Of a stretch of 64,000 nucleotides of DNA, positions 27,746 to 64,000 are shown in pieces. Under the pieces are notes generated by a model. That model was not told the origin of the DNA. It made no database searches and was given only the letters and a program-made list of their open reading frames with translations. Numbering within the stretch: position 1 is the stretch's first letter; each line of letters begins with the position of its first letter. This stretch comes from an uncultured Chloroflexia bacterium. Lineage in GTDB: Bacteria; Chloroflexota; Limnocylindria; Limnocylindrales; CSP1-4. The translations under genes were made by a program, and so were the position numbers. The DNA lies in NCBI GenBank assembly GCA_963743815.1, contig CAVURB010000010.1, forward strand, positions 134,099 through 198,098. Reading direction: 5' to 3'.

Positions 27746-28149
27746 TGCCGGCGCTCGTGGTCGACGCGAGTGCCGCCCTTCATGTCGCCCTGTCTGATGG
27801 TCCGACGGCCGAGTTGGAGCGCTTCGAACTCGTCGCTCCGCCTCTGTTCCTGTCGGAGCGAACGTCATCTCTCGCCTCCGCCGCATTTCGTGGCGCGATC
27901 CCGCAGGACGCCGTACTCGACGCCTTCGATCGGCTCGAGGCCATGACCGTGCGGATCCTCGAGACCGACGACGGGCACCGTCGCGCGGCGCTGGCATTGG
28001 CGCGCTCGCTCGGCTGGGCGAAGACCTACGACGCCGAGTACGTCGTCATGGCGCAACGGTTGTCGTGCTCGCTCCTGACGACCGATGTACGCCTGGTGCG
28101 CGGCGCCGCCCACCTGGTCCAGATGCTCGATCCACGGGACTGGACGTAG
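27745..28149 (+). CDS. PIN-domain ribonuclease toxin (VapC-like)
   Basis: MPALVVDASAAL… N-terminal acidic Asp, …LLTTD… conserved PIN acidic residues; 134 aa. Confidence 0.65.
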   Translation: MPALVVDASAALHVALSDGPTAELERFELVAPPLFLSERTSSLASAAFRGAIPQDAVLDAFDRLEAMTVRILETDDGHRRAALALARSLGWAKTYDAEYVVMAQRLSCSLLTTDVRLVRGAAHLVQMLDPRDWT

Positions 28150-28248
28150 GAGCGTGGGAGCGGAGACGCGGGCGCCTGGTCAATTAGTCGACCCCGGGAT
28201 CTGGAACAGACGACAGACCGTCGCCACTGCTGGCCGCAGGGTCCGTCT

Positions 28249-28326
28249 ACTCACTGCCGATAAGGTAAGTTATGTCTGTACAACGTCCACCAGACGTTCC
28301 CGTGCTCGAACGACGCAGGAGTAGAC
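28249..28326. promoter_or_regulatory. Inverted repeat CCGTCTACTC…GAGTAGACTG flanking a lower-GC spacer upstream of the FN3 protein gene
   Basis: 8-9 bp perfect arms about 60 bp apart in the promoter region of 28369. Confidence 0.3.
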
Positions 28327-28368
28327 TGCGTCGACGATCGCTCGTTCGCCCCAGGATGGAGCCAACTG

Positions 28369-30297
28369 ATGTCGACGCCGCGCCGGACCAGCATGCTCGC
28401 CGCTCTGCTTGCAGCGTCACTGGCGCTGACCGGTGTCGGCCTGGTGACAGCCGCCTCGGCGCCGTCCGCGCCGACGGACGTCGCGATCGGGGCGGGCGAC
28501 GGGACGGTCGATGTCGCCTGGCTGCCGGCCGACGACGGGGGCAGCCCCGTGACGTCGTACCACGTGAGCGTGGAGCCCGGCGGCCACGCCGTGGACGTCC
28601 CCGGCGATACCACGAGTGCGTCGGTCGGCGGGTTGCCGAACGACGTCGCGGTCACGGCTACGGTCACTGCGACGAATGCGCTCGGCACGGGGTCCGCGTC
28701 CGCGGCATCTGCGGCGGTGACGCCAAGAGCAGGCGCGTTTGCGCCGTCGGCACAGGTCATCCGTGGATCAGGGCCAGTGACCGTGGGCTACGGTTTTGTT
28801 TCGCCGACGGATCCCGTCGCGACGGTCGCGGCTGGTGAGGCGTCGGCCGGCGTCGCAGTCACACTCGTTGAGACCGCTCCCACCATCGCGCTGCCCAGTG
28901 GCTTCCTGCGACTCGGCGGGCAGGTGGAGCTGACGGGCCTCACCGGCAGTGTCGAAGGGAGCGCGATCCAGCTCGTTCTCACGTTCCGTGACCACGCACT
29001 CCTGGGGCGCCATGCGTCGGGTCTTCGGGTCTTTGACGAGGCCAGCGATGTCGTCCCGAGGTGCGCTGAGTGGGTCGTTCCTGATCCGTGCGTGGATCTT
29101 CAGGAGCCCGAATCGGACGGTTTCTGGGAGGACGCTGGGGGAACGCTGACGATCCTCTCTACGGTCGGCCACAGCTTTGTCTTCGGCTTCGAAGCCGAGG
29201 CTATCGCGCCGAGCGTCACCATCACTACTCCGGCCGTCGACGCGCGCTACAGTCGAGGACAGGTCGTCTACGTCGACTACACCTGCGCCGATGAGCCGGG
29301 CGGTAGTGGGATCGCCGGCTGCACGGCCTGGGACGACCTCGGTCGCGAGTTCCCAGACGGTCGGCTCCTGCCGGCGTTCGACGAGAACCGGATCATCGTC
29401 GTCGGCATCGACCGCGCCGGCAACAGGACGGTCGTCCAGCACTACTATCGGTACGTCGACGACATCGACGAGACCTTCGTCGGGCCGATCACGCTCAGCA
29501 CCGACCCCGGCGGCCTCGGAGCTTCCTCGGACCGCCCCGTCACGACGACGCTGAGTACGCCGCCGACGACCACCAGCGGCCACGTCGTTCTCGACCAGCG
29601 ATCCGCGCCCGACCCGATCGCGGGCTACGAACTCTTGGGCCGATACATGCGGATCGAGGCGGACCTGGTGCCGCTCCCAACGAGCGCGCAACCCATGGCC
29701 ATCGAGTTCCGGATCGACGGACCCGAGATCCCTGATGGCGTGGATCCGATGGACGTCGAGGTCCTTCGGAACGGGGTCGCGGTCCCCCCCTGTCCCGGTT
29801 CGACGGTCGCGGCCCCCGATCCGTGCGTGACGAGCCAGGGCCTGGTCGACGACGACCTCGTCATCCGGGTGCTCACGAGCGCGGCCAGCGACTGGACGTT
29901 CGGCGTCCGGACTGTGGTGCCGTTCGCGTTCGACGGCTTCTACCAGCCGGTGGATGACGATCCGGTCGCTGGTCACCTGCCCGTCAACACGGTCAAGGCC
30001 GGCGCCGCCGTCCCCGTGAAGTTCAGTCTCGGCGGCGACCAGGGATCGGCGATCTTCGGCGCGGGTTCACCGTCGTCGCGCCGCATCGACTGCTCCTCGG
30101 CCGATCCGGACGATGCCATCGAGCAGACCGTCTCCGCGGGCGGCAGCAGCCTCGCGTACGACGCCGCGACGGGCGTCTACACCTACGTCTGGAAGACCGA
30201 CAAGTCGTGGGCGAAGGCGCCGAACGGCCCCTGTCGCCAGCTGTCCGTGACCCTCACGGACGGCTCGGTGCACGTCGCGAACTTCAAGTTCCAATAG
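28369..30297 (+). CDS. Large secreted protein with N-terminal fibronectin type III domain and C-terminal Cys-containing beta-sandwich-like domain
   Basis: Signal peptide; FN3 signature (PSAPTDVAIGAGDGTVDVAWLP…SPVTSYHV); 642 aa; C-terminal PVKFSL…YTYVWKTDK…CRQLSVTLTDGSVHVANFKF. Confidence 0.6.
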   Translation: MSTPRRTSMLAALLAASLALTGVGLVTAASAPSAPTDVAIGAGDGTVDVAWLPADDGGSPVTSYHVSVEPGGHAVDVPGDTTSASVGGLPNDVAVTATVTATNALGTGSASAASAAVTPRAGAFAPSAQVIRGSGPVTVGYGFVSPTDPVATVAAGEASAGVAVTLVETAPTIALPSGFLRLGGQVELTGLTGSVEGSAIQLVLTFRDHALLGRHASGLRVFDEASDVVPRCAEWVVPDPCVDLQEPESDGFWEDAGGTLTILSTVGHSFVFGFEAEAIAPSVTITTPAVDARYSRGQVVYVDYTCADEPGGSGIAGCTAWDDLGREFPDGRLLPAFDENRIIVVGIDRAGNRTVVQHYYRYVDDIDETFVGPITLSTDPGGLGASSDRPVTTTLSTPPTTTSGHVVLDQRSAPDPIAGYELLGRYMRIEADLVPLPTSAQPMAIEFRIDGPEIPDGVDPMDVEVLRNGVAVPPCPGSTVAAPDPCVTSQGLVDDDLVIRVLTSAASDWTFGVRTVVPFAFDGFYQPVDDDPVAGHLPVNTVKAGAAVPVKFSLGGDQGSAIFGAGSPSSRRIDCSSADPDDAIEQTVSAGGSSLAYDAATGVYTYVWKTDKSWAKAPNGPCRQLSVTLTDGSVHVANFKFQ

Positions 30298-30492
30298 TCG
30301 AGGGAGCGGCTCCGTCGGCACGGGCGATGGGGGACGATCCTCGGCCGGTGCTGGTTGGAGGCCCCGTGTTCGATGTCATCGTCGGCTGGGTCGGCATGAC
30401 TCCCCTACCCCGTGGGCGATCCGGACGGTCGATCATTCCGGACCATGCACCAGGCTCGTTGCGGTGACCCAGGCTGTCGCCGTCCAACCGCC

Positions 30493-31644
30493 CTATGGCA
30501 GCGTCCATGCGGCGGGCACGCACCTTGGGTTCTCTGTCGATGACGGCGGTGGCGGGCAGGCTGAGCCGACGATCGTGCGGCCGCTCACGGCGTGCATCCC
30601 GAAGTACTCGTAGCCTGCCGGTGGCGGCAGGACCTGAACCGAGTCGGTTTCGAGGTCCCAGACCAGATTCGTGGTGAAGTCGTGCCCGATCGCGACCGGG
30701 CCGCTCACACCGACGGCCGTGCCGTAGACGTTGGTTGCCGGGAGGGCGAGCTGGCGCACCGAGCCTGTGCCCGTATCCCAGACCAACGGCAGCGGCGTGC
30801 CCTCCTCGCCGAAGCAGCAATTGCCGACCGCCGTCGTGCCGTCCACCGAGCGCGGAATGCCGTCCATGGTCGCCGAGACCAGGTCGAGGTCCCGGGCCTC
30901 GGCAGTGAGCGGGCTCCAGACCAAAGGAAGGGCTTCGTCGCGGTCGCAACGGATCCCCACGACGGTGTCGCCGCTGATGGCGAGCGGGTTGCCGCAGTCA
31001 TAGCCGGCGGGCAACTCGAGGATCCGGACGGCGCCCGTGTCGGTGTCCCATGCCACTGCAGCCCCGACCTCCCCGCCCGTGGTCCACACCTGGCCGACCG
31101 CCGTCGTCCCATTGATGGCATGCGCCTCGGATCGCGTGAAGCCGGCGGGGATATCCAGGATCCGGAGCCCGCCGGTCCGGGAGTCCCAGGCCATCGCACG
31201 ATCCTGGCCGCGCTTGCCCCCCGTGCCGAGGACGCCTGTGCCGACGGCGGTCATGCCGCTCACGCCGTCGAGCCGGACGTAGGTCTCGCCGTTCGGGTGG
31301 ACGAACTCCTCGGGAACCTCCAGCACCCGGAGCGCACCGGTGGCGGTATCCCAGACGGCGGGCAGCTCGTCGTTGATGCCGATCTGCACCCAGCCAACGG
31401 CCGTCGTGCCATCCACGGCCTCGGCCTCGCCTCGGCTGTAGCCGGCAGGCAGGTCGAGCGCTCGGAACGTGATCTCAGGCGTCGGAGTCGGCGTCGGCTC
31501 CGGCGTCGGGAGCGCCGTTGATGTGGGCGCTGAGGCAGTGGCAGTCCCGGCGCTGCCCGACGGCGCGGGGACCTCGCTGCACGCGGCACTGACGAGGGCG
31601 ATGACCACGACGATGACGACCCGGATGCGCTTCATATCGATCAT
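30493..31644 (-). CDS. Lipoprotein with ~6 tandem HAF-like extracellular repeats
   Basis: Lipobox (LVSAAC); repeated unit …AV(N/D)GTTAVG…WDTxTGxxRxLxLPAGY… about 45 aa, six times. Confidence 0.6.
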   Translation of the reverse strand: MIDMKRIRVVIVVVIALVSAACSEVPAPSGSAGTATASAPTSTALPTPEPTPTPTPEITFRALDLPAGYSRGEAEAVDGTTAVGWVQIGINDELPAVWDTATGALRVLEVPEEFVHPNGETYVRLDGVSGMTAVGTGVLGTGGKRGQDRAMAWDSRTGGLRILDIPAGFTRSEAHAINGTTAVGQVWTTGGEVGAAVAWDTDTGAVRILELPAGYDCGNPLAISGDTVVGIRCDRDEALPLVWSPLTAEARDLDLVSATMDGIPRSVDGTTAVGNCCFGEEGTPLPLVWDTGTGSVRQLALPATNVYGTAVGVSGPVAIGHDFTTNLVWDLETDSVQVLPPPAGYEYFGMHAVSGRTIVGSACPPPPSSTENPRCVPAAWTLP

Positions 31645-31740
31645 CGTGCCGCAGCGCCCGGGTTGCGGTCGAGGGCTGTCCGGCAGGGATTCGGCGGGCC
31701 TCCACGTCGACTGGGATCGTCGCCTTCAGGCGCCGCAGCG

Positions 31741-32124
31741 TTAGCGTTCGTCGCCGTAGGGTCGGGTGATGATCTCGAGGTTGTGCCCGCTCGGGTCGTC
31801 GAAATAGACACCGCGGCCGCCATCGTGGGTGTTGATCACGCCCGGCTCCTCGTGGCCGGGATCGGCCCAGAACTGATGGCCCCCTGACTGGATTCGACCG
31901 AAGATCGCGTCGAAGTCGTCCTCGCCCACGAGGAAGCAATAGTGCTGCGAGGCGATCTCCTCGGTCGTGTCGAGGTAGTCGAGGGTCACGGCGTTCGACA
32001 CCGCGACGGCGTGGAACGGACCCCAGGTCGTCGGACTCGGCAGTCCGAAGAGATGGGTGAGGAACTCCGCCGAGGCCCGACTGTCCCGCGAATACACGAT
32101 GGTGTGGTTGAGCTCGATGGACAT
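31741..32124 (-). CDS. VOC family protein (glyoxalase-like)
   Basis: 127 aa VOC fold. Confidence 0.6.
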   Translation of the reverse strand: MSIELNHTIVYSRDSRASAEFLTHLFGLPSPTTWGPFHAVAVSNAVTLDYLDTTEEIASQHYCFLVGEDDFDAIFGRIQSGGHQFWADPGHEEPGVINTHDGGRGVYFDDPSGHNLEIITRPYGDER

Positions 32125-32151
32125 GGTCCTACTCCTCCCTCGTTGTCGACC

Positions 32152-32798
32152 CTAACCGAGGCGCCAGAAGTCGCCGGTGAGGCCGAGCCGATCGAGCACA
32201 GCCTGGTTTTGCTCCCGCGAGTGCGGTCGCCAGTCAGGATCGAGGCGGTCCCACCACCAGGCCTCGGCGAGCTCGGCGGCCTTCGTGATCGACATGGTCG
32301 CGCCGGGCGGACGACCAGCGAGCCATCGGGAGAGGTGTGCTTCCGACCGGAAGACGAGCATGGTCCCTCACGTGTACCCGATGTCGTCCCACCAGGTGCG
32401 TGCCGGCACGAGGACATGGAAGACCGGGGCCGGGTCCGTCGGGCGATAGTCGTGGACCTCAAGATCGACCGAGTCGCCACAGTCGGCGCACGTCGTGTGG
32501 ATCATCGAGTCTGTACGCAGGACGACACCGATCCCGAACGCGTCCCATCCACAATTCGCGAACCAGGACCGACCGGCAGCCTCCACCCGATGCGGCGTCT
32601 CCACCGCGGAGAACGGGTTCGCCATCCGCAGCTGCCCCGCACCGTCGAGGACGAGCGCATGGGCGTCGTGCAATCGCTGCCAGGTGGTGACGACGACGTC
32701 GCTCCCCTGCCCCGTGGCAGCGGCGACCTCATCGATCGCTCGGCGCTCGACCGAGCTCGGCGAACAACCGATAGCTCGCGTTCCGGACGGCCAGATCG
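32152..32798 (-). CDS. MerB-like (alkylmercury lyase family) protein with in-frame TGA at the Cys159-equivalent position; candidate selenoprotein
   Basis: Catalytic motif WFANCGWD (Cys96/Asp99 equivalents of MerB); TGA at 32368-32370 aligns with catalytic Cys159 (…DIGYT-U-GTMLVFRSE… vs MerB …SFCCHVHFFAS…); downstream reading frame shows purifying selection; conserved hairpin follows the TGA; a 1-nt indel near the N-terminus (~32740). Confidence 0.6.
32328..32367 (-). other. SECIS-like hairpin immediately 3' of the UGA (mRNA GGGACCAUGCUCGUCUUCCGGUCGGAAGCACACCUCUCCC)
   Basis: Lower stem GGGA/UCCC, apical stem CUUCC/GGAAG with GGUC tetraloop about 15 nt after UGA; sequence is nearly identical in the paralog at 40329-40368. 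Confidence 0.5.
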
Positions 32799-32840
32799 TC
32801 AGGCGTCATCGCCGCAAAGGGTACGTGGTCCGGCCCCGAT

Positions 32841-34175
32841 CTATGGCGCATGGGCCGCGAAGAGTTGCCACGTGCCCGGGACGCCCTTCAGCTCGTGGCT
32901 GCCCCGGTCGTCGAACTCGAGTTCAGACCCAACGACGAGGTCCCTGACCGTGCTCGAGACCAGGACCTCACTCGGCCCGGCGAGGGCCGAGACCCGGGCA
33001 CCGATGTGGACGGCCATTCCGGCGATGTCGTCGGGCAGGACGTCGACTTCCCCGACGTGCAGCCCGGCCCGGATCTCCAGGCCGAGCTCCCGGACCTCGT
33101 CGCGGATCGCGAACGCGCATCGGACGGCTCGGGCCGGGCCGTCGAAGGTGGCCAGGAATCCATCGCCGATCACCTTGACCTCCCGCCCTCCGAAGCGGTC
33201 CAGCTGGCGACGGACGATCCGGTTGTGATCAGCCAGCAGGGTCCGCCATCGACCGTCGCCGAGCTCGGCCGCCCGTTGGGTCGATCCGACGATATCGGTG
33301 AACAGCACGGTCGCGAGCACGCGACGGGGGTCGAGCACCGGCCGAACACCCGTCACGAAGTCCTGGATCTCGGCGACGATCGCGTCCTGATCGCCAGCCC
33401 AGATGAGATTGTCGACACCGGGCAGCTCGACGTAGCGGGCATCGGGGATGTTCGCGGCGAGATAGCGTCCATGCTCTGCGCGGAATCCCGTCGCATCCGA
33501 TCGGTGGATGACCAGCGTCGGGACGCGGATCGCGGCCAGGACGTCCCGGACATCGCTTTCGTAGATGAGGCGGACGATCGCCTTCGTGCTGCCGGGCGTC
33601 GCCGCGCTCCGCTCGTAGCGCGCCCAGGCACGCCGGATCCGTTCGTCATCGGCCACGGACGGCGCGAAGAGGTCGATCATGACGCCGCGTCCGGCAAAGT
33701 CCTCGGCCTGCTCCAGGGCGGGTGTGAGTTCGACCATCGGCGCCCCGGCCGGGTAATCCGACGCCTCGAGGAACCGGGCGAAGCAGTCGACCAGGATGAG
33801 GCTCGAGACCCGATCAGGATGGGTGGCGGCGAACGGCATTGCCAGGATCCCGCCGCCGATGTTCGCGATCACGGCGGCTCGCTCCGAGCCGACGGTGTCG
33901 AGCACGGCCGGGATATCGGCCATGAACTCCTCGAGGGTCGGTAGCGACGACGTCGGGATCGGGTCCGACAATCCCGTTCCTCGCTTGTCGAACATGATCA
34001 GCCGACCGAAGGTCGCGAGGCGCTCCCGCAGCGCGGCGACCGGCGGGACGTCCCACTGGGCGTCGACATGGCCGAACCACTGATCCAGCAGGAGGATGTC
34101 TGGCGGCCCTTCGCCAACGACCTGGTAGGCCAGGTGCAGATCGCCGAGCCGGGCGTATCTGGTCTCGGGAAGCAT
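32841..34175 (-). CDS. Alpha/beta-hydrolase fused to class III adenylyl/guanylyl cyclase (LipJ/Rv1900c-like)
   Basis: N-terminal alpha/beta hydrolase domain, C-terminal cyclase catalytic domain (…VLFTDIVGSTQ…KVIGDGFLATF…). Confidence 0.8.
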   Translation of the reverse strand: MLPETRYARLGDLHLAYQVVGEGPPDILLLDQWFGHVDAQWDVPPVAALRERLATFGRLIMFDKRGTGLSDPIPTSSLPTLEEFMADIPAVLDTVGSERAAVIANIGGGILAMPFAATHPDRVSSLILVDCFARFLEASDYPAGAPMVELTPALEQAEDFAGRGVMIDLFAPSVADDERIRRAWARYERSAATPGSTKAIVRLIYESDVRDVLAAIRVPTLVIHRSDATGFRAEHGRYLAANIPDARYVELPGVDNLIWAGDQDAIVAEIQDFVTGVRPVLDPRRVLATVLFTDIVGSTQRAAELGDGRWRTLLADHNRIVRRQLDRFGGREVKVIGDGFLATFDGPARAVRCAFAIRDEVRELGLEIRAGLHVGEVDVLPDDIAGMAVHIGARVSALAGPSEVLVSSTVRDLVVGSELEFDDRGSHELKGVPGTWQLFAAHAP

Positions 34176-34245
34176 CGTTCGGAAGCGTACTCACCGTCGG
34201 ACTCCTCCGTCGCCTTACCCAGCAACCTGAGCACGCCCGGGCCGG

Positions 34246-34947
34246 ATGACCGACCATTCGGTCATGCCGACCGAGCACGACCAGCCATCCCCTCCCCCGC
34301 CGGTGAGCCCGCCGAGCGGCCCGCCGACGCCGGGGGACGTCGCCTGGGTCGCCGCCATCACCGCCGCGAAGGCCACCGTCGTCGCACTGGCCATCGACGC
34401 GTTCCTCAACTCCGACCAGCCCCGCTATCACGGCAAGGGCATGCGTCTCCGCGCCATCGGGTACGCGGGTGGGCTGCTCGTCGTGCCGGCGGCCTGGCGC
34501 GCCCTCGGACGACGCGAGCCGTACCCCCGGGAGCTTGACCTCGCGATCACCCTCCCACTCCTCGTCGATGCCGGCGGCAACGCCATCGGGATCTATCGGC
34601 GCGCCCACGTCGACGACCTGATCCATTTCGCCGATGGAGCGCTCGTCGCGTCCGTGGTCGGTGCGCTCGCGACGCCGCGGGTCCGGACCTCGTGGGAGGC
34701 CGCCGCAGCCGGGACGCTGGCGGGCGGCGCGGCGGCGGGGCTGTGGGAGATCGGCGAGTGGATCGGTTTCAAGCTGGGAGCCAAGGGCATGAACCTGTCC
34801 TACGACGACACGATGACCGACCTGATCGAGACGATGGCGGGAGCGGCGCTCGGCGGCGTCATCACCCTGTTGCGCCATCCGTCGCGTCTGCGGCGCGTGC
34901 CCGGCGGCTCGGGCGACCCGCTCGTCGAGCCGCACTCGAAGGCCTGA
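34246..34947 (+). CDS. Hypothetical membrane protein
   Basis: 233 aa ORF with Pro-rich N-terminus and several hydrophobic helices; good GC3 bias. Confidence 0.45.
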   Translation: MTDHSVMPTEHDQPSPPPPVSPPSGPPTPGDVAWVAAITAAKATVVALAIDAFLNSDQPRYHGKGMRLRAIGYAGGLLVVPAAWRALGRREPYPRELDLAITLPLLVDAGGNAIGIYRRAHVDDLIHFADGALVASVVGALATPRVRTSWEAAAAGTLAGGAAAGLWEIGEWIGFKLGAKGMNLSYDDTMTDLIETMAGAALGGVITLLRHPSRLRRVPGGSGDPLVEPHSKA

Positions 34948-34953
34948 CGCCGC

Positions 34954-35764
34954 GTGGCAGGCGGACGCGCTCCGGGTGACGCTTCCGTCGATATCGGCTA
35001 CGTCGGGCACGCCACGGTGCGCCTCGACGTCGCGGGGACGTTGATCCTGACCGACCCGTTCCTGCGCGCGCGCCTGGGGCCATTGGAGCGACACGGACCG
35101 ATGCCGGACGAGGTGGCCGATCTGGACATCGACCTCGTGCTGATCTCGCATGGGCACCCGGACCACTTCGACCCGGAGTCGCTCGCGTCGCTCAGGGGTT
35201 CGCCGACGGTCGTGGTCCCGCGCGGGCTCGGCGCTCGCGCGCGACAGGTGCTCCACGGGGACGTGATCGAGGTCGCGGCCGGGGAACGACTCTCGATCGG
35301 CGGCGTCACGGTCGACGCCGTCCCGGCCTCCCACTGGATCTCGCCGGGCGCCCCTCGCGCACAGCCGATCGGGTACGTCGTCGATGCCGGTCCGCGGATC
35401 TACTTCGCGGGCGACACGGGGCCATTCGCGGGTCTCGACCGGGTGCTCGCCGACGTCGACGTGGCGCTGCTTCCCGTCTGGACATGGGGTCCGCACCGTG
35501 GGCCCGGCCACCTTGGCCCGAAGTCGGCCGCCCAGGCCCTGGCCGCCGCCGGCCCGACGGTGGCGATCCCCATCCACTGGGGCACGCTCTACCCGCGGCG
35601 GCTGCACCGGCGTCTGGTCCGGCCCGTTGCGCGAGCCCGGCGACCGATTCGCCGACCACGCGGGTCGACTGGCGCCCGCGACGACCGTGGAGGTCCTGCG
35701 CCCGGGCGAGGACACGATCGTTCGCGTCGGTCGACGCGGTCAGGACGGTCCGTCGGGGCCGTAG
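34954..35764 (+). CDS. MBL-fold metallo-hydrolase (apparent C-terminal frameshift)
   Basis: LISHGHPDHFD metal-binding motif; C-terminus recovered in the second frame ending at 35764. Confidence 0.7.
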
Positions 35765-35774
35765 ACTCCGCGTG

Positions 35775-36977
35775 ATGGAGGGGTACGAGCTGACCGAGGC
35801 GGCCGCACGCTGCGGTCTGGGCGTCGACGAGCTGCAGCGGCTGGTCGCCCTCGGCGTGATCCGGCCCAGCGTCGGCGATCGGTTCAGCCGGGGCGACCTG
35901 CGTCGGGCCAGCCTGGTGACGAGTCTCGCGGCCGCGGGCATCTCGCTCGAGGGGCTCGCGCGCGGCGATCCGCGACGACCAGGTGTCGCTGGCCTTCCTC
36001 GATGCGACCGCGTTCGACCGGTTCGCCCAGCTGTCAGAGGTGACGTTCGCGGAGATGGCCGACCGGTCGGGCGTGCCGCTCGACTTCCTCCAGTACATCC
36101 GCGAGGCCTCGGGTTCTGTGGCCCCGGAGCCTGGCGACCGCATGCGCGACGCCGAGCTGCCGATCGTCACGTGGCTCCAGACGGCCCTCGGCGCCGGGAC
36201 CCGCCCGGCAGCGACGCTCCAGATGATCCGCGTCCAGGCCGACGGCCTGCGCCGCATGGCGGAGACGGAGGCGGCGTGGTGGCAGGCGGAGGTGCTCGGG
36301 CCCGGCGGCGGCGGGCGGCCAGCGGACGGACGAGGTCCTGGGCGCCGACTTCGGCGATCGGATGAGCGCCCTCACCGAGCAGGCGGTGATCTCGATGTAC
36401 CACCTCCAGCAGACGAAGGCGTGGACCAGCAATCTCGTGGAGGGGGTCGAGGCGATGCTCGCCGGCGCAGGGTTGCACAGCCGCCTGGACCGGCCACCGG
36501 CGATGTGCTTCCTCGACATCACCGGCTACACGCAGCTCACCCAGGAGCACGGTGACGCCGCGGCCGCCGAGCTGGCGGACCGGCTCAGCGGGATCGTGGG
36601 CCGGGCGTCGGTCAAGTACGGCGGGCGGGCCGTCAAGTGGCTCGGCGACGGCGTCATGTTCCACTTCCCCGACCCGGGGCAGGGCGTGCTCGCGGCGATC
36701 GAGATGGTCGCAAGCGTGACCGGGGCCGGTCTGCCGCCGGCGCACGTGGGGCTCCACGCCGGCCCGGTGATCTTCCAGGAGGGCGACTACTACGGGGCCA
36801 CGGTCAACATCGCGTCGCGGATCGCGGACTACGCCCGGCCGGACGAGGTGGTCGTCAGCCAGGCGGTCGTCGATGCCGCCGACGGCGCGCCGGTCACTGT
36901 TCCGCTCGATCGGGCCGGTCGCGCTGAAGGGGGTCGCCGCGCCACTGGACCTGTACGTGGCCACGCGGCCGGCCTAG
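35775..36977 (+). CDS. Adenylyl cyclase with N-terminal MerR-type HTH (multiple apparent frameshifts)
   Basis: MEGYELTEAAARCGLGVDELQRLVALGVIRP MerR HTH; cyclase domain MCFLDITGYTQLT…VKWLGDGVMFHF…; assembled from three frames. Confidence 0.65.
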
Positions 36978-37001
36978 TCGCCGAGGCATCGAGGAGGACA
37001 C

Positions 37002-37430
37002 ATGGGGTACGTGATCGGGGCGACGGTCGAAGCCGATGTGGATCCCGCCGCGGTCTTCGCTCTGTACATGGACCCGTCGACTTGGCCGGTCTGGGGCCAC
37101 AACGTCCGTTGGGCGCATGCCGACGGCCCGCTCGTCGAGGGCGGGATCGTCGAGATCCGCCCCAGATATCCGGTCACCTACAACTGCCGGATCCTGCGCC
37201 TGGTGCCGGGCTCGCTGCTTCGCATCGAGGTAAAGCCGAAAGGCATGACGATCGTCAACGTCTACGAGATCGAGCCGACCGCCGGCGGGTGCCGCGTCCG
37301 CCACGCCTTTGAGATCTCTGGCCCGCTTTCCGGACCCCTTCGATGGTTCGGCGTCGCCCGCCTCTACCAGTCGTCACTCGGCGACGAGATCCGCCATTGC
37401 ATCGAGCTCGCCACGTCGAGGTCCGCCTGA
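37002..37430 (+). CDS. SRPBCC (polyketide cyclase/START-like) family protein
   Basis: 142 aa ORF, START-like beta-grip pattern. Confidence 0.55.
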   Translation: MGYVIGATVEADVDPAAVFALYMDPSTWPVWGHNVRWAHADGPLVEGGIVEIRPRYPVTYNCRILRLVPGSLLRIEVKPKGMTIVNVYEIEPTAGGCRVRHAFEISGPLSGPLRWFGVARLYQSSLGDEIRHCIELATSRSA

Positions 37431-37459
37431 ACGTCTCCCCCACTGGGATCCCGCCCGAA

Positions 37460-38473
37460 CTAGTCGCCCGAACGCTGCATCGCGGCGAGGCTCCCGAGCG
37501 CGGCCGGATCGAGCGCATCCTGCGACACGGCAGCGACCCGGGCGCGGGTGCGGGCCCGCAGCGTGGCGGTCCTGACGCCGTCCCGCTGGCCGGCGCGCTC
37601 GCCGACGACGGCACCGGGGCCGATCTCGGCGATCTCCTCGCCGTCCCGCACGACGACGAAGATCCCATCGAGGATCAGGAACACGTCCGTGCCGGGTTCA
37701 CCCTGCGGACGAGCTCCTCGTCCGGCCGCGAGGGTGCGGATCTTGGGCTTGGCCCCGTCGTCCATGATCGCGCCGGACAGCGAGCGCTCCAGCGCCAATT
37801 CGACCGCCGCGACGATGGCCGGCGAGTCCTGCTCGCCCCATGGGGTTCGATCGCCGTGCGCGTGGTTGAACCACTGCGCGAAATCGATGGTGCCGGACTT
37901 CTGGACGAGCCGTCCTTCGTGGTCATAGATCCAATGGCGCGGGAAGGGGCTGGCGCCCACGAGCTCGTGACTCGAGCTGCCGTCGGCGTTCAGGGTCAGG
38001 GCGAGGGTCGTCCACGCGATCGACGGCCAGAACTGGACGAACGGCTTGTGCGGGACGGGCCGGGGTGTCGGGAGCCCCATCCGCCCACCGATGGTCTGCA
38101 CGAACCGGGCCGACGTTTCGGTGATCTCGGGCGCCGGCTGGATGTCAGGCAGCTGGACCGCGGGGAACCGCAGCGCAGCCGGCCCCACTTTGACCGTCGT
38201 GGCGCCGATGTGGCCCTGGCCGAGATGACCGGCGTCCACGATGCGCCCGTCCTCCACCTCGATGAACGCCCGAAGCTCGTTGGCCTCGCGGAAGCGGTCG
38301 CTCGTCCGCAGCGCCTCCAGATCCTCGATCCGATCCGGCGGTGGCTCGTCGTAGTGGGTCACCCCGAGCTCGAACGTGATCTTCGCCGGGCCGGTGATCG
38401 CCTCGGACGGGATCCAGGAGACGGCGATGACGGACAATTCGAAGCGCTGTCGGACCACGGGCGTAGACCTCAT
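37460..38473 (-). CDS. Protein with N-terminal domain of unknown function and C-terminal cyclic-nucleotide-binding domain
   Basis: C-terminal …DGEEIAEIGPGAVVGERAG…RTATLRA… phosphate-binding cassette of cNMP-binding domains. Confidence 0.65.
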   Translation of the reverse strand: MRSTPVVRQRFELSVIAVSWIPSEAITGPAKITFELGVTHYDEPPPDRIEDLEALRTSDRFREANELRAFIEVEDGRIVDAGHLGQGHIGATTVKVGPAALRFPAVQLPDIQPAPEITETSARFVQTIGGRMGLPTPRPVPHKPFVQFWPSIAWTTLALTLNADGSSSHELVGASPFPRHWIYDHEGRLVQKSGTIDFAQWFNHAHGDRTPWGEQDSPAIVAAVELALERSLSGAIMDDGAKPKIRTLAAGRGARPQGEPGTDVFLILDGIFVVVRDGEEIAEIGPGAVVGERAGQRDGVRTATLRARTRARVAAVSQDALDPAALGSLAAMQRSGD

Positions 38474-38526
38474 TGCGGGGCGGGCACCCGGGTAGTCTAG
38501 CCATCGACGACCGTGCGTTTGGAGCG

Positions 38527-39138
38527 ATGACGATGAAGCTGTCGGCCACGATGTTCCTCACCCTGGACGGTGTGTACCAGGGGCAAGGGGGCGCCGACGA
38601 GGACCGCCGCGGCGGGTTCGAGCGCGGCGGCTGGGTGGCACTGCATCCCGACGAGGAGATCTGGCCCTACATCCAGTCGGTCTACGAGCGCGCCGACGCG
38701 TTCCTGCTCGGGCGCGTCACCTGGGAGATCTGGGCCCGGTATTGGCCGTTCCACGACGCGGGCGACCCGGTCTCGCACGGGCTCAATGTGCTGCCGAAGT
38801 ACGTCCCCTCGACCACGCTCACCGACCCGTCGTGGGCACTGACCCACGTCATCTCGGGCGACGTCGAGGCGGCGGTGCGCGAGCTCAAGGCGCAGCCCGG
38901 ACGCGAGCTCCAGGTCCACGGCAGTGGTGTGCTGCTCCGATGGCTCCTCGAGCGCGACCTCGTGGACGAGCTCAACCTGCTGATCTACCCCGTGGTGGTG
39001 GGCGACGGGATGCGGCTGTTCCCGGAGCGTGGCCCGACGCACGACCTGACCCTGGTCTCGTCGAGGACGACGCCGTCCGGCGTGACCCTCCAGACCTATC
39101 GACCGGCCGGCCGCGCGACGTTCGGGGCTGCCGGCTGA
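38527..39138 (+). CDS. Dihydrofolate reductase family protein (RibD C-terminal domain-like)
   Basis: MTMKLSATMFLTLDGVYQG… and …LQVHGSGVLLRWLLERDLVDELNLLIYPVVVGDG… typical of the YwjB/RibD_C family. Confidence 0.7.
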   Translation: MTMKLSATMFLTLDGVYQGQGGADEDRRGGFERGGWVALHPDEEIWPYIQSVYERADAFLLGRVTWEIWARYWPFHDAGDPVSHGLNVLPKYVPSTTLTDPSWALTHVISGDVEAAVRELKAQPGRELQVHGSGVLLRWLLERDLVDELNLLIYPVVVGDGMRLFPERGPTHDLTLVSSRTTPSGVTLQTYRPAGRATFGAAG

Positions 39139-39265
39139 CTCGCGGGTAGAGCGCTAGCGGCGAACGACCTCGAATCGAATGGTCATTCCGCCGATGTGCC
39201 GGCGTGCGGCCGGCACCTAGGCTGGCCCTTCGACTCAATCGACCCTTCTTGAACAAGGAGACCAC

Positions 39266-40102
39266 ATGACCGAGGTCATGGAACTGAACGATGCCGACCG
39301 CGCCCTGAAGGCCCGCCACCGCGCGATGTGGGCGATGGGCGACTACGACGCCGTCGCCACGCAGGTCATCCCGGCGCTCGGGCCCGTCCTCGTCGACGGG
39401 ACGGGGATCAATCCCGGCGATCGCGTCCTCGATGTCGCGGCAGGGTCCGGGAACGCATCGCTGCCGGCCGCTCGCGCGGGCGCACGGGTCGTTGCCAGCG
39501 ACCTCACGCCTGAGCTCCTCGATCACGGGCGCCAGCACGCCGCGTCCGAGGGACTCGAGATCGACTGGCATGAGGGCGATGCCGAGGCGCTGCCGTACGA
39601 GGACGCGTCGTTCGACGTGACGATGTCGCTCGTCGGGATCATGTTCGCGCCCCACCATCAGGCGAGCGCCGATGAACTGGTCCGCGTCACCCGTCCCGGC
39701 GGACGGATCGGCCTCATCAGCTGGACACCGGAGGGCTTCATCGGCCAGATGTTCGCGACGATGAAGCCGTATGCTCCACCGCCGCCTCCCGGGGCGCAGC
39801 CTCCGCCGCTCTGGGGCCGCGAGAGCCACGTCCGCGAGCTGCTCGGCGACAGCGTCACGGACGTGCGAGCGACCGTCGCGAACCTGACGGTCGACGCGTT
39901 CACCGGCCCAGAGGACTTCCTGGCGTACTTCAAGCGCAACTACGGCCCGACGATCGCGGTGTACAAGTCGCTTGCCGACCAGCCGGAGCGCGCCGCTGCG
40001 CTCGACCAGGAGCTCGTGGACCTCGCCTCCCGGTTCGGATTCGCCGACGGCGTCGCGACGATGGACTGGGAGTACCTGCACTTCACCGCCACCAGGGCGT
40101 GA
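39266..40102 (+). CDS. Class I SAM-dependent methyltransferase
   Basis: VLDVAAGSGNASL motif I, 278 aa. Confidence 0.75.
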   Translation: MTEVMELNDADRALKARHRAMWAMGDYDAVATQVIPALGPVLVDGTGINPGDRVLDVAAGSGNASLPAARAGARVVASDLTPELLDHGRQHAASEGLEIDWHEGDAEALPYEDASFDVTMSLVGIMFAPHHQASADELVRVTRPGGRIGLISWTPEGFIGQMFATMKPYAPPPPPGAQPPPLWGRESHVRELLGDSVTDVRATVANLTVDAFTGPEDFLAYFKRNYGPTIAVYKSLADQPERAAALDQELVDLASRFGFADGVATMDWEYLHFTATRA

Positions 40103-40142
40103 GCCCGATGGGGCGCTCCTGACATCCCGTCTTTCGTCGGAG

Positions 40143-40483
40143 CTAGCCGAGGCGCCAGAAGTCGTCCGTGAGGCCGAGGCGATCGAGGATCGCCTGGTTC
40201 TGCTCGCGTGTGTGCGGCCGCCAGTCGGGATCGAGGCGGTCCCACCACGAGGCTTCCGCGAGCTCGGCGACCTTCGTCAGCGGGATGCTGGCGCCCGGCT
40301 GGCGGCCGGCGAGCCAGCGGGAGAGGTGTGCTTCCGACCGGAAGACGAGCATCGTCCCTCAGGTGTGACAACGTCACTCCCCTGACCCGTGGCGGCCGCG
40401 ACCTCGTCGACGATCGGCGCGCGTCCCAACTCGGCGAACAGCCGATACGTCGCGTTCCGGACAGCCAGGTCCTCAGGCGTCAT
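40143..40483 (-). pseudogene. Internally deleted paralog of the MerB-like gene (N-terminal 45 aa + C-terminal 71 aa; retains TGA and SECIS-like hairpin)
   Basis: About 90% nt identity to 32152-32385 and 32695-32798; ~310 bp including the NCGWD catalytic region is missing; junction at short gtg microhomology; N and C parts are out of frame. Confidence 0.6.
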
Positions 40484-40609
40484 CGCCGACAAGGGTACGC
40501 CGACGCGATCACGGTCGGACCGGGTTGCGCCGCATCAGGTCATGGCTACCATGGACGTGGCGCGCGCGTTGATGCGAGTCGGCCTGCGGGTCGAAGCGGG
40601 AGGGCGACG

Positions 40610-41370
40610 ATGCGGCGGTTCCTGGTGATCCTGGCGATCTTGGCGATGGTGCTTGTCGGCTGTAGCGGGGCGGCTGGCTCGGCGGCGCCGACGGACGGAC
40701 CGACGACGGGGTCCAGCGCCCCATCGGAGGCGGCGTCCCAGGCTCCTGGCGGGTCCCCTTCCTCGTCGACCGATGCGTCGGCGGCCGCCTCCGAGCCCCC
40801 GGCCGCGTCCGAGGCCACCGGGATCCCGGCGGCGTGTGCCGAAGGTTTCGCGGAGTATCTCGTCGCGATCGAACCGCTCGTCTCGGGGTTCGATCCAGCG
40901 ACCGGGACCCTGGCTGACCTCTTCAGCGCGAAGGAGGCCGCCCGATCGAAGTCGATGGAGCTTCTGACCGCCAACGACTCGCGGGCACCGTACAGCTGCT
41001 CGGAAGTCGGCCTCGAGTGGGCGTACTTCGATTCGGACACGCCGTGGGATGCCGTCCTGGCGATCGCCGCCGACGACGGCCCCGGGCACGGTGGCCTATC
41101 TGACGGGGCTGCGGGCCACGTCGGCGTTCGACGTGAACGCGATGAGCGTCTACGGGATCGAGGGGTGTGACGACGCCGTCGCCGAGCATCAAGGAGCGCG
41201 TGGCCGCCGAGATGGGCGACGGCCTGACCAGGGTCGACGAGATGCCCTTCGACGAGGCCGTCGCGCTGGTGGGCCTCTACCGGGCCTACATGCGCGAGGT
41301 CCGGAACGAGGTCTGCCCGCGCGACGAGCTGGGCAACGACGAGTTCGGCTTCATGGCCTCCGCCGGTTGA
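40610..41370 (+). CDS. Lipoprotein, hypothetical (apparent frameshifts)
   Basis: MRRFLVILAILAMVLVGCSG lipobox, Ser/Ala/Pro-rich linker; C-terminus in another frame ending at 41370. Confidence 0.5.
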
Positions 41371-41372
41371 GG

Positions 41373-42771
41373 CTACGCGGTCGGCGGCTCCACGTTGTGG
41401 TTCAGGTGGAAGACGTTGGTCGGGTCCCACGTGCGCTTCAGGGCGCGGAGACGTTCGAGCTTCGCGTCACCGTAGCTGGCGCGGGTCACGTCCGGCCCGG
41501 CATCCGACAGCTCGTTGATGTACCGGCCCGGAAGGAGGTCCGGCTCGACGATCGCCATCGCCCGCCGTACCCAGTCCAGGTTCGCCTGATCGAGCGCCGG
41601 ATCGGACCAGGCGGTGTCGGGGCTCACATCGAACGGCGCGGTCGCGCCCGGTGAAGGCCGTCGCGTCGTCCGCGACGCGCCCGATCGCGCCGCCCATCGC
41701 CGTCACCGAGATGCTGCTGTCGCCCGGGACGTGCTCCACGTGCTCGACGAACGCATCGAGGACCGCGGGCGAACAGTCGGCGATGTAGCCGCCGAGGATG
41801 GCGGTCCGCGAACCCCACGCGAGTTCGAGGTCGCTCGACCGCTGCGCGTCGAGGTACGGCTCGCTCGTGGCGGTCGCCGAGGCCGGCTTCGGGTCCATGG
41901 TGGAGCGGAGCGAGATCTCGCTCGACGTCCTCCCCTGCCCCACTGTGGTTGTACGAGATGACGACGATCGGCCGGCCGGCGACCGATTCCGGATAGTCCG
42001 CGGCCGGCTCGGCGAGCGCGACGGTGAAGATGGCGGCGATCGTCTCGGGCGCCGTCGCCACGAACTCGCGAAAGATCGGCCAGAGCTCGTGGATGTCGGT
42101 CGCGGGGTGGATCCGGACGCCCCGGTGGAGCGTCCCCGGAGAACGGATGCAGCTCCAGCTCCAGGCTCGTCACGATGCCGAAGTTGGCACCGGCGCCGCG
42201 GAGTCCCCAGAACAGCTCCGGCTCGTGCTCGACATCTGCTCGCACCGTGCGCCCGTCGGCGGTCACGAGCTCGACTGCGCGAAGGCTGTCGATCGTCAGG
42301 CCGAACCGGCGCTGCAGCCGTCCGACGCCGCCGCCGAGCGTCAGCCCGGCGACGCCCGTGTGACCGACGACCCCGACCGGGCAGACGAGGCCGTGCTCCT
42401 GGGCCGCGATGTCGAGTGTGCCGAGGAGTGCTCCGCCACCGGTCCGCGCCAGCCGCGCGCGTCGGGTCGACGGTCACCTCGTTCATCCGCCCGAGGTCGA
42501 TGACGAGACCACCGTCGGTCGTCGAATGCCCGACCGCGCTGTGGCCGCCGCCGCGCACGGCGATCTCGAGCTCGCGCTCACGGCCGAAGCGGATGGCGGC
42601 CGCAACGTCGTCGACGCTCGACGGCCGGACGATCAGCGCCGGCCGACGGTCGAACACCGCGTTCCAGACGCGTCGAGCGTCGTCGTACGTGGCGTTCTCG
42701 GGCGCGATGACGTCGCCGGCGAAGTGGCGCCGGAAGGCGTCGAGCTGGGCGAGCGTCGGGGCGGTGGTCAC
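41373..42771 (-). CDS. FAD-linked oxidase (BBE/VAO family), multiple apparent frameshifts
   Basis: FAD-binding PCMH domain (…[10 protein letters not shown]…), C-terminal BBE domain (…[14 protein letters not shown]…); pieces in three frames. Confidence 0.65.
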
Positions 42772-42791
42772 GCTCGCACCCTACCGCCTCC

Positions 42792-43025
42792 TTATTCGTC
42801 GCGGGACGCGGACAAGGCATCGAGTGCTTGTGGGTCCAGGGCGTCGGCAGGCACGCTCGCCACGCGTGCAGCCGAACGCGCCACGAGGGTGGCGGTCCGC
42901 CGCCCATCGGTAAGCCCGGCGCGTTCGCCGACGACGGAACCCGGCCCGATCTCGACCACGGGCTCGCCATCGACCTGGATCCATGAGACGGAGGTGACCC
43001 ACGACTCGAATCGCTGACGTGCCAT
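42792..43025 (-). pseudogene. Internally deleted paralog of the cNMP-binding protein (N-terminal ~17 aa fused in frame to the C-terminal cNMP cassette)
   Basis: MARQRFESWVTSVSWI | QVDGEPVVEIGPGSVVGERAG…RTATLVA… matches both ends of 37460..38473 with the middle ~250 aa absent. Confidence 0.5.
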
Positions 43026-43031
43026 GGATCT

Positions 43032-43433
43032 CTACCTCGTGATCTCGCGTTCGATGTGGTTGACATGCTGAGCCTCGTGGTCGGCCAGCCGGTCGATGTA
43101 ATGCCGCGCGGACCGCTCCTCGACGCCGCGCGCGGGGATGTTCACGGCCGCGGTACGCGTGAAGTCTGCGGCATCGGTCGCGCGAAGATGCGCCATCAGG
43201 CGCGCTCGATCCCTTGTGAACGCCGCCAGCGATTCGCCGAACGGTTGCTCGAGGAAATCTGTTCGATGGATCGTGGAGCGCGGGCTCTGCGCGCGGAACG
43301 ACGGGTGCTCCTCGTCGAGGATCCGCTCGATGTAGCCGCCCCACGTCAGATCACAGGCGCGGATGTGACCCAGGATGTCACGCGCGGACCAGCCACCGTC
43401 CTCCAGTGGCTGGTGCAGAAGGTTCGCCGACAC
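43032..43433 (-). CDS. DinB/YfiT-like (DinB_2) metal-dependent hydrolase family protein
   Basis: 133 aa, His-rich DinB_2 motifs (…ILGHIRACD…HEAQH…). Confidence 0.6.
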   Translation of the reverse strand: MSANLLHQPLEDGGWSARDILGHIRACDLTWGGYIERILDEEHPSFRAQSPRSTIHRTDFLEQPFGESLAAFTRDRARLMAHLRATDAADFTRTAAVNIPARGVEERSARHYIDRLADHEAQHVNHIEREITR

Positions 43434-43526
43434 CCCACCCGTCGCGGCCGCGATCCGCGCGGGCCCACGTTCGAGGAGCGCGAGGGCCTCGTCGACCGCA
43501 AATCGCGGTTTGGGCTCGCTGATGGC

Positions 43527-43976
43527 TTACGCCTCTGAGCCGGGGCCCATCGCGACCGTCCCATCGGAGAGGACCGGCGTGATGAGACCGAACACGTTGC
43601 CGTCGGGGTCGATCAGGTAGCCGCCCCGGCCGATGCCGGGATAGTCGGTCGCCGGCAGCGCCTCGACGGCGCCGAGCTCGATACCGCGGGCCATCAGCCC
43701 ATCGACCTCCTCGACGCCGACCACGAAGTTGCAGCCGTTGATCGGCGCTCCCACCTCCGGGCGCGGTCCGCCGCGCTGCGTCAGGCCGCCATTGATGCCG
43801 AGACCCGCCTTCGCCTCGACGTTTCCGATCGCGCCCTCGCCGGTATCGATGATCCAGTACGGCTGCTCGCCGCCGCCGATGTCCTGGAACGTCCAGCCGA
43901 GCAGCTCGGAGTAGAAGTCGATGAGCCGTTGCGGCTCCGATGCATGGATCTCGAAATGGACGACGAGGTTGGCCAT
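43527..43976 (-). CDS. VOC family protein (glyoxalase-like)
   Basis: Start at MANLVVHFEIHASEPQRLIDFY…; VOC fold. Confidence 0.65.
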   Translation of the reverse strand: MANLVVHFEIHASEPQRLIDFYSELLGWTFQDIGGGEQPYWIIDTGEGAIGNVEAKAGLGINGGLTQRGGPRPEVGAPINGCNFVVGVEEVDGLMARGIELGAVEALPATDYPGIGRGGYLIDPDGNVFGLITPVLSDGTVAMGPGSEA

Positions 43977-44127
43977 GGCGGTCTCCTTGGGCTCGAGGTG
44001 GGGGCCACGCGTAGTATCGCGGCTCGTCGCCCCGCAGGATCGCCAGCTGGTCACCTCGTCTGCCGTGTGCCTTCCCCGGGAGTTTGGCACTCTGCTGGAT
44101 ACCACCTGACGCACGAGGAGACGAGTC

Positions 44128-63251: not shown

Positions 63252-64000
63252 TCAGGCGTCCATCTTGCCACCGGGATCGCGGGCGAGGAATCGCGTGGCG
63301 ACCTGGTCCGCGATCGCTCGGCTCCTGGGTTGGCCGGTCAGGGCGGCCAGGAACGGTTCGCGTTCGATCGCGATGAGCTGGGTGGGCGTGGCTGCCCGGA
63401 CAGTGGCCGTGCGGGGGATGTCATGGAGGAGCGCGATCTCGCCGAACCCGTCGCCGGGCCCAAGGGTCCGGGTCACCGTCCCGCCGACCTCGACATCAGC
63501 GCGCCCGTCCGCGATCACATAGAACCGGTCACCGCGTTCCCCTTCCACGATGATCGCGACGCCCGGGACCGACGCAACGGTCTCGGCATCGGACGCGAGG
63601 CGCTCCAGGACGGGGGCGGACAGTGGACGGAACATCGCGACCGATCGGATGAGGCGGAGCTCCCGCAAGTACCCGTCCTCCGCCCGATCCGCGCGGATGA
63701 ACGCCGGCGCCGCAAGGAGCGCGACGACCGGCAGGGACAGGCCAGCCGCCACGAGCGCGCCTTCCACGCCGAACAGGACGATCAGCAGCGGCACCATCAG
63801 GCCGCCCAGGGCTTCCGCCGCGACCATCGCGGCCTCGGTGAGCCCGAAGACCCGGGTCATCACGTCGTCTCCGGCCAACCGTTGCGTGAGCGTGGTCGCC
63901 GCCACGTAGGCGAACGACCAGCCGACCCCGGTCGCCACGAACAACGCCACGACGATCGCCGGCACGCGGACGATGCCCAGGAGCGCGACGACGACCCCGA
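63252..64000 (-). CDS. Membrane transporter-like protein with C-terminal cyclic-nucleotide-binding domain (5' partial; N-terminus beyond window end)
   Basis: TM helices then …FGEIALLHDIPRTATVRA… cNMP-binding cassette. Confidence 0.65.
   Translation of the reverse strand, partial: GVVVALLGIVRVPAIVVALFVATGVGWSFAYVAATTLTQRLAGDDVMTRVFGLTEAAMVAAEALGGLMVPLLIVLFGVEGALVAAGLSLPVVALLAAPAFIRADRAEDGYLRELRLIRSVAMFRPLSAPVLERLASDAETVASVPGVAIIVEGERGDRFYVIADGRADVEVGGTVTRTLGPGDGFGEIALLHDIPRTATVRAATPTQLIAIEREPFLAALTGQPRSRAIADQVATRFLARDPGGKMDA

Follow-up and report, generated by a model that had tools for sequence, protein, structure and literature searches.

A probable pseudogene relic of a second, selenocysteine-type MerB-like gene in an uncultured Chloroflexota bacterium

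The window, by which the whole 64,000-nucleotide stretch of DNA analyzed here is meant, carries two copies of a MerB-like gene on its minus strand, a full-length copy A and an internally deleted copy B that runs from an ATG at 40483 to a stop at 40143. Copy B is probably a pseudogene: it would be what remains of another, diverged gene of the selenocysteine type that was disabled by a fairly recent out-of-frame deletion. It combines clear homology to the intact gene with a disabling lesion that is absent from 111 relatives. The elements of the two copies are the following:

32152..32809, minus strand: copy A, full-length MerB-like gene, ATG at 32809 and stop at 32152, with its TGA at 32368-32370 and the hairpin core at 32340-32353.
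40492..40497, minus strand: TACCCT hexamer (TAnnnT, -10-like), 8 nt upstream of the ATG of copy B, within the 16 nt of upstream homology common to copy A.
40367..40483, minus strand: first 39 codons of the MerB-like gene, still present in B (MTPEDLAVRNATYRLFAELGRAPIVDEVAAATGQGSDVV), delimited by alignment to copy A.
40366..40367, minus strand: deletion junction, its placement ambiguous by a few nt, at which 316 nt of copy A (32691..32376) are missing.
40359..40361, minus strand: relic TGA at what was selenocysteine codon 147 of the intact protein, now in another frame than the 5' ORF.
40331..40344, minus strand: SECIS-like hairpin core CUUCC-GGUC-GGAAG, at +17..+30 after the T of the TGA, identical to copy A.
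40277..40483, minus strand: chimeric 68-aa ORF, 39 MerB N-terminal plus 29 out-of-frame residues, the product to be expected from continued use of the old start.
40143..40352, minus strand: open 69-codon ORF plus stop (MLVFRSEAHLSRW...FWRLG), the C-terminal third of the MerB-like protein.

The relationship between the two copies is readily apparent from local alignment. Positions 40499..40411 of B align to 32825..32737 of A (89 nt, 85.4% identity), 40410..40367 to 32735..32692 (44 nt, 86.4%) and 40366..40136 to 32375..32145 (231 nt, 85.3%), so that B retains 133 nt at the 5' end of the gene and 231 nt at its 3' end. An earlier reading of this DNA, made from the sequence alone, had described a match to the two gene ends at about 90% identity; the ends hold, and the overall identity is lower, at 85%. 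The homology begins 16 nt upstream of the ATG and ceases within about 10 nt past the stop. In addition, the family-invariant 15-mer TCTTCCGGTCGGAAG has only two sites in the window, one in each copy. By these alignments, the homology between A and B is far beyond chance. The stretch missing from B, 32691..32376 of A, comprises 316 nt and includes NCGWD, the Cys-x-x-Asp motif of MerB, in line with the sequence-only reading that the middle with the catalytic Cys/Asp had been lost. That reading had also fixed the junction at a gtg/tca microhomology, where it cannot be pinned: the two sides share a 2-nt AC overlap between imperfect repeats (left GTCAC/CACCTGG, right GGGTAC/ACCTGAG, with the slash marking the break).

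The consequences of the deletion for translation are severe. As 316 is not a multiple of three, the 5' end of B runs out of frame across the old UGA, which it reads as CCT GAG, and ends as the chimeric ORF; the N-terminal part had indeed been noted as lying in a different frame. The TGA itself is retained, as previously stated, and is located at 40359-40361 in plus-strand coordinates, not at 40369-40371. In its own frame it is embedded in GE-stop-RCHT-stop-GTM, with another stop 5 codons upstream. Because of the frame shift and of this stop, the UGA in B goes undecoded, which leaves the hairpin without a UGA to act on. Copy B thus has neither a UGA within a translated reading frame nor a translated equivalent, Cys or Sec, of MerB Cys159, and the Cys-x-x-Asp pair (MerB Cys96/Asp99), present in A and in the relatives, lies inside the missing 316 nt. 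Neither the 69-aa ORF nor the 68-aa chimeric ORF scores as MerB with Pfam PF03243, and the 69-aa ORF alone has no match in NCBIfam. No further indels or stops occur in either retained frame of B over the 364 aligned nt, which is consistent with a recent deletion on the scale of the 15% divergence between the copies.

Strong comparative evidence points to a selenoprotein gene as the parent of both copies, combining a conserved in-frame UGA, Cys homologues and a constrained SECIS-like hairpin. The conceptual product of frame-corrected copy A has 218 residues and scores 96.7 bits with PF03243 (cut-off 27) over residues 66-184, a span that crosses the TGA and extends 38 residues into the part corresponding to the 69-aa ORF. 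With this frame-corrected product as query, 2365 relatives were retrieved, and nearly all of the best 120 of these are exactly 146 aa long, because the gene callers stopped at the TGA. One relative of 219 aa (P0005) reads through with a Cys at the TGA position, encoded by TGC in the DNA. When P0005 was in turn compared with 1.84 billion representatives, many clusters of about 146-153 aa were obtained together with full-length proteins of 220-235 aa. Each full-length homologue forms one polypeptide across the TGA point, and Cys occupies the TGA position in 14 of the 17 that were aligned, P0005 counted, the other three having W or A. In the alignment with MerB2 (PDB 5c17), moreover, the TGA falls on the second catalytic Cys. 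An AlphaFold2 model of P0005 from a 20-row alignment, with a mean pLDDT of 56.9, was too poor to use.

At the DNA level, the family was followed through 31 genome loci (MAGs of Chloroflexota/Limnocylindrales, Gaiella, Thermoleophilia and Acidimicrobiia) and 80 soil-metagenome loci. These 111 loci (L001-L031 and L033-L112) make 113 copies with the two of the window. All 113 carry TGA at the same codon, never TAA or TAG, and past it the reading frame is conserved up to a shared C-terminus. Collectively, the comparisons point to what appears to be an undescribed clade of selenoproteins, found in soil Chloroflexota and Actinomycetota (Gaiellales, Thermoleophilia, Acidimicrobiia), whose members are cut at 146 aa almost everywhere in public gene calls. 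It is this parent family, exposed by following up the relic, that holds the real interest. The window contains no tRNA, and no Sec machinery was found among the window ORFs scanned. In many family members a TAnnnT hexamer precedes the start codon by 6-9 nt and a Shine-Dalgarno sequence is missing, which suggests leaderless mRNAs; the sites in the window are 32818-32823 and 40492-40497 (minus strand).

The hairpin after the UGA is under evident constraint. Positions +17..+28 (CUUCCGGUCGGA) are invariant in 105 unique sequences, and all 14 core nucleotides (+17..+30) are invariant or near-invariant. Five invariant pairs join +17..+21 with +26..+30 around a GGUC loop, and two more pairs can form in some sequences; pairing is kept where pair 18-29 alternates between U-A and U-G and pair 15-32 between G-C and C-G. 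The codons that underlie the hairpin are fixed as well, Arg being CGG and Ser being TCG in 105 of 105, whereas other conserved Arg positions use 5-6 codons. In the Cys-type gene the Ser codon is TCT and the closing pair is broken, an observation from one sequence only. Minimum free energy folds of 46-66 nt from the region after the UGA are no more stable than shuffled sequences (z = +0.3 to +1.3), and consequently the case for the hairpin rests on comparative data. No Rfam family matches at gathering thresholds over the whole window, and a permissive scan of 40100-40600 returned noise only. The geometry presumably resembles that of the E. coli fdhF SECIS, a short stem-loop 3' of the UGA inside the coding sequence with a GGUC apical loop, placed about 20 nt after the UGA in the family and about 19 nt in fdhF. 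The family stem differs in having just 5-7 bp and no evident bulged U, binding of SelB to it is putative, and in B no decoded UGA lies upstream.

Between A and B, 2 of 48 nt differ from the TGA to +47. This region is nearly the same in both copies and the hairpin core is identical, much as the sequence-only reading had it, although the element is shorter than the 40 nt given there, with a stem of 5-7 bp, the GGUC loop and a 14-nt core. Compared with its relatives, copy B has all the family invariants of this region intact: the TGA, the AUG at +9 and the hairpin. Of 105 Sec-type genes, 104 share the AUG three codons past the TGA (32359-32361 in A, 40350-40352 in B), which may contribute to the lower stem of the SECIS (G11-C33, U10-A34) or serve as a re-initiation codon.

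The divergence of the retained segments is substantial and mostly synonymous. The 39-codon 5' segment differs from A at third positions in 14 of 19 cases (dN/dS 0.12). In the 69-codon ORF, which is open as had been reported, 10 of 69 residues differ and 20 of 29 nucleotide differences fall at third positions (dN/dS 0.15), again in agreement with the mostly synonymous change described before. Across both segments, dS amounts to 0.48-0.61 and dN/dS to 0.12-0.15. Furthermore, B is about as distant from A (84-86% nucleotide identity; 84-87% with the orthologue of A, L001, included) as from L036, L033 and L002 of other organisms (84-88%). By these values, the divergence between A and B is old and shaped by selection, and B ranks as an old paralogue or xenologue, not as a recent duplicate of A.

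It should be taken into account that the pairwise dN/dS mostly records the history before the deletion and is consequently no evidence that the 69-aa piece is still used. The substitutions private to B number 7 synonymous and 6 non-synonymous, like those of intact relatives, in a branch-specific test with few sites and low power; against full neutrality, the binomial p is 0.024. This ratio fits a young deletion and fits equally well a continuing constraint on the 3' ORF. At the level of single residues, B has Ser at a Trp site (W35S) that is W in 101, H in 2 and Ser in none of 103 relatives, and, at an N-terminal site, an Ile that is absent from all 63 relatives compared.

The lesion itself appears to be restricted to this locus. 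The same deletion is absent from all 31 genome loci and 80 metagenome loci, every one of which has the TGA and, if its contig extends far enough, the upstream domain intact. No protein with the junction of B was found among 5.8 billion sequences; the sole match in the junction search, P0121, is a different truncation of a different homologue. Exact-protein look-ups returned no record for the 69-aa ORF of B or for the neighboring methyltransferase.

An orthologous locus was sought by way of the neighboring methyltransferase gene in four relatives, L115, L116, L117 and L118/L119, and none of them has the B element. The contig of L115 stops 128 nt past the methyltransferase gene, with no similarity to B there, and L116 and L118/L119 have other genes downstream of it. 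L117 (Logan SRR13394437) matches both flanks, window positions 39179-40100 at 87% and 41371-42197 at 91%, and has an unrelated 244 nt at the place of the following segment of the window:

40101..41370, strand not applicable: lineage-specific segment of 1270 nt, with a putative lipoprotein ORF (40610-41170, plus strand) besides the B relic, delimited by comparison with L117.

Judged from L117, B sits in a lineage-specific, variable segment. A repeat search around B gave no convincing mobile-element ends, and neither end of the segment showed a repeat or mobile-element signature. As no intact orthologue of B was recovered, we infer the ancestral state from the family.

On this basis, the ancestor of B would have been a full-length gene of 146 codons, the UGA and 72 codons, like A and the 111 relatives. 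A single 316-bp deletion between the short similar sequences at the junction would have taken out approximately codons 40-145, including the catalytic Cys-x-x-Asp. What is left at the 5' end would then be a likely leaderless start and 39 codons, followed by 29 foreign codons and a stop, with the UGA and the SECIS-like hairpin out of use and the 69-codon ORF representing the untouched 3' end of the gene. The perfect appearance of the UGA and hairpin would reflect very strong constraint before the deletion and a time since then too short for decay.

The relic is of small importance in itself, being one more bacterial pseudogene from a deletion between short repeats, and it indicates that the lineage probably once had two copies of the UGA-containing MerB-like gene. 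It resembles ordinary pseudogenes of this kind in its out-of-frame internal deletion at a microhomology, the loss of catalytic residues, the preserved gene ends and the lack of a counterpart in relatives. Unlike them, it happens to keep a recoding signal, the UGA with its SECIS-like hairpin, and an open 3' ORF, features that probably make it look more important than it is. The death of a gene can leave a conserved UGA, a hairpin and a low pairwise dN/dS in place, and these, taken alone, are no evidence of expression.

Copy A has one extra base near 32736-32739, which shifts the frame at codon 24 and leads to a stop at codon 27. This base is absent from L001, from copy B and from L114 (GCA_021733565.1), which is 94% identical in nucleotides, has the same gene order around A and bears an intact 146-aa call. 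Similar lesions split two other genes. The FAD-binding oxidase gene (FAD_binding_4, 41373-42771, minus strand) passes through frames -3/-1/-2/-3 relative to the L117 protein, and the adenylate-cyclase-like gene (35775-36971, plus strand) through frames 3/1/2/3 relative to the L114 protein, with three single-base insertions in each case. The segments of both split genes are 74-96% identical to the relatives, the extra base is always in the window, and neighboring genes are clean. Overall, the window holds at least seven ORF-breaking single-base insertions, copy A included. These are probably assembly errors, and for this reason copy A is probably intact in the organism. Other frameshifted or truncated family members are L028 and L030 (over the whole match), P0095 and L032 at 2452-2658 (P0121). 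L028 and L030 come from 'MFD' MAGs, as does L001, which suggests that indel errors are common in assemblies of this type.

Among the alternatives to a pseudogene, the least unlikely is that the 3' piece is still a gene, its 69-codon ORF being translated from its own AUG, 7 nt past the old UGA, into a stand-alone small protein, for instance a C-terminal domain acting in trans. The sequence-only reading had left a small protein and a recent remnant side by side. The ORF is open, with a GC3 of 0.91 and the low dN/dS against A, a purine-rich GAGG lies 4 nt before its ATG, the AUG at +9..+11 is kept in nearly all Sec-type genes where Cys-type homologues have I, L or M, and the changes private to B show no non-synonymous enrichment. 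The dN/dS value is however pairwise and dominated by the time before the deletion, and the piece is only the last third of one MerB domain, given that PF03243 covers residues 66-184. In the 111 loci and in the full-length homologues it is always fused to the N-terminal part, on its own it matches neither Pfam nor NCBIfam, its Trp has been replaced by a Ser never seen at that site in 103 relatives, and ribosomes from the old ATG would pass the AUG site out of frame. A small protein is therefore considered unlikely and a remnant is favored, one whose deletion, not whose duplication, would be recent (dS about 0.5-0.6). Very unlikely is also the broader proposal that B is not dead, its leaderless 5' end driving a transcript on which the SECIS-like hairpin and the 69-codon ORF are maintained, either for a mini-protein or for a SelB-binding RNA that tunes selenocysteine insertion into the intact paralogue. 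The narrower possibility that the UGA-hairpin module acts purely as RNA, for instance as a decoy that binds SelB or by regulating selenocysteine insertion for A, is highly improbable. Its hairpin core is the same as in A and in the whole family, and the likely promoter and start are retained; this identity is nevertheless what recent descent from a strongly constrained gene would give, no free-standing hairpin occurs elsewhere (the motif is found only in A and B within the window and otherwise inside intact genes), and Rfam gives no match. To our knowledge, no SelB-binding decoy of such a kind has been described.

An artefactual deletion in an organism that has two intact copies is slightly more unlikely than the small protein. 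The consensus is imperfect, as the single-base insertions demonstrate, and no independent contig reproduces B. The errors seen are nonetheless insertions of 1 nt, none of them a large deletion, the 15% difference from A means that B is no collapse of A reads, the junction has no long repeat that could cause a collapse, and both flanking blocks align without gaps. A related idea, that the frame shift is an assembly error hiding an in-frame deletion, is unlikely for the same gap-free blocks and because the errors in the window are insertions; it would need one missing base within 12 nt. Finally, a similarity limited to the hairpin, that is, a mobile RNA motif with no gene duplication, has a negligible probability and is refuted by the pairwise alignment that the sequence-only reading had proposed as a check: the homology covers both gene ends, 133 nt 5' and 231 nt 3', it diverges with a codon-position pattern and it ends at the gene borders. 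The most probable reading of B thus stays that of a pseudogene.

With regard to known systems, the nearest is SaoL, the MerB-like selenoprotein of the SAO locus (NCBIfam NF040728; Haft & Gwadz, bioRxiv 10.1101/2022.07.06.499078), the only MerB-like selenoprotein found in the literature searched. Both belong to the PF03243 fold family, in both UGA-selenocysteine replaces the second catalytic Cys (MerB Cys159), and in both the genes are routinely truncated at the UGA in databases and the frame resumes after it. In contrast to SaoL, the parent family reaches only 50.3 bits on NF040728 (cut-off 140), has a Thr-Sec (T-U) instead of a Cys-Sec (C-U) motif and is longer by about 40 residues at the C-terminus (AWW.DRL...GLTG.FW). 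Its members come from MAGs of Chloroflexota, Gaiellales, Thermoleophilia and Acidimicrobiia and from soil metagenomes, whereas SaoL is found in anaerobic Firmicutes and the like, and they neighbor glyoxalase and hydrolase-cyclase genes, not a nine-gene SAO set. An assignment of the parent family to SaoL was rejected on score, motif and neighborhood; copy B is, moreover, only a fragment of a parent-family gene.

Canonical MerB (E. coli R831b, PDB 3F0P; Bacillus MerB2, PDB 5c17) is more distant. Copy A can be aligned to MerB2 over residues 20-175 (E = 6e-7), and there the Cys-x-x-Asp and the TGA position of A coincide with catalytic residues. The NCBIfam MerB models give only 40-42 bits against cut-offs of 193-200, the parent family has Sec for Cys, and B is devoid of the catalytic core. 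No mer operon genes are present among the window ORFs near either copy.

The window has 70% GC and is chromosomal; its upstream genes include ruvB, tgt, recA, ymdB and the gene for RNase Y. Copy B and a class I methyltransferase gene (39266-40102, plus strand) are arranged tail-to-tail, and the putative lipoprotein ORF (lipobox LVGC) is divergent from B, with B upstream. A promoter and terminator scan of 39900-40800 found nothing, the sigma-70 consensus being probably inappropriate for this host. The wider surroundings include the following genes, of which the hydrolase-cyclase fusion, the cyclase and the cNMP-binding proteins belong to cyclic-nucleotide signalling, and the glyoxalase/VOC and RibD_C genes, like the methyltransferase gene, to the detoxification type:

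31741-32124: glyoxalase/VOC gene.
32841-34175: alpha/beta-hydrolase-cyclase fusion.
35775-36971: cyclase.
37460-38473 and 63252-63965: cNMP-binding proteins.
38473-39138: RibD_C.

The part of the window from 28000 to 44000 is rich in genes for cyclic-nucleotide signalling and in small genes of the detoxification type.
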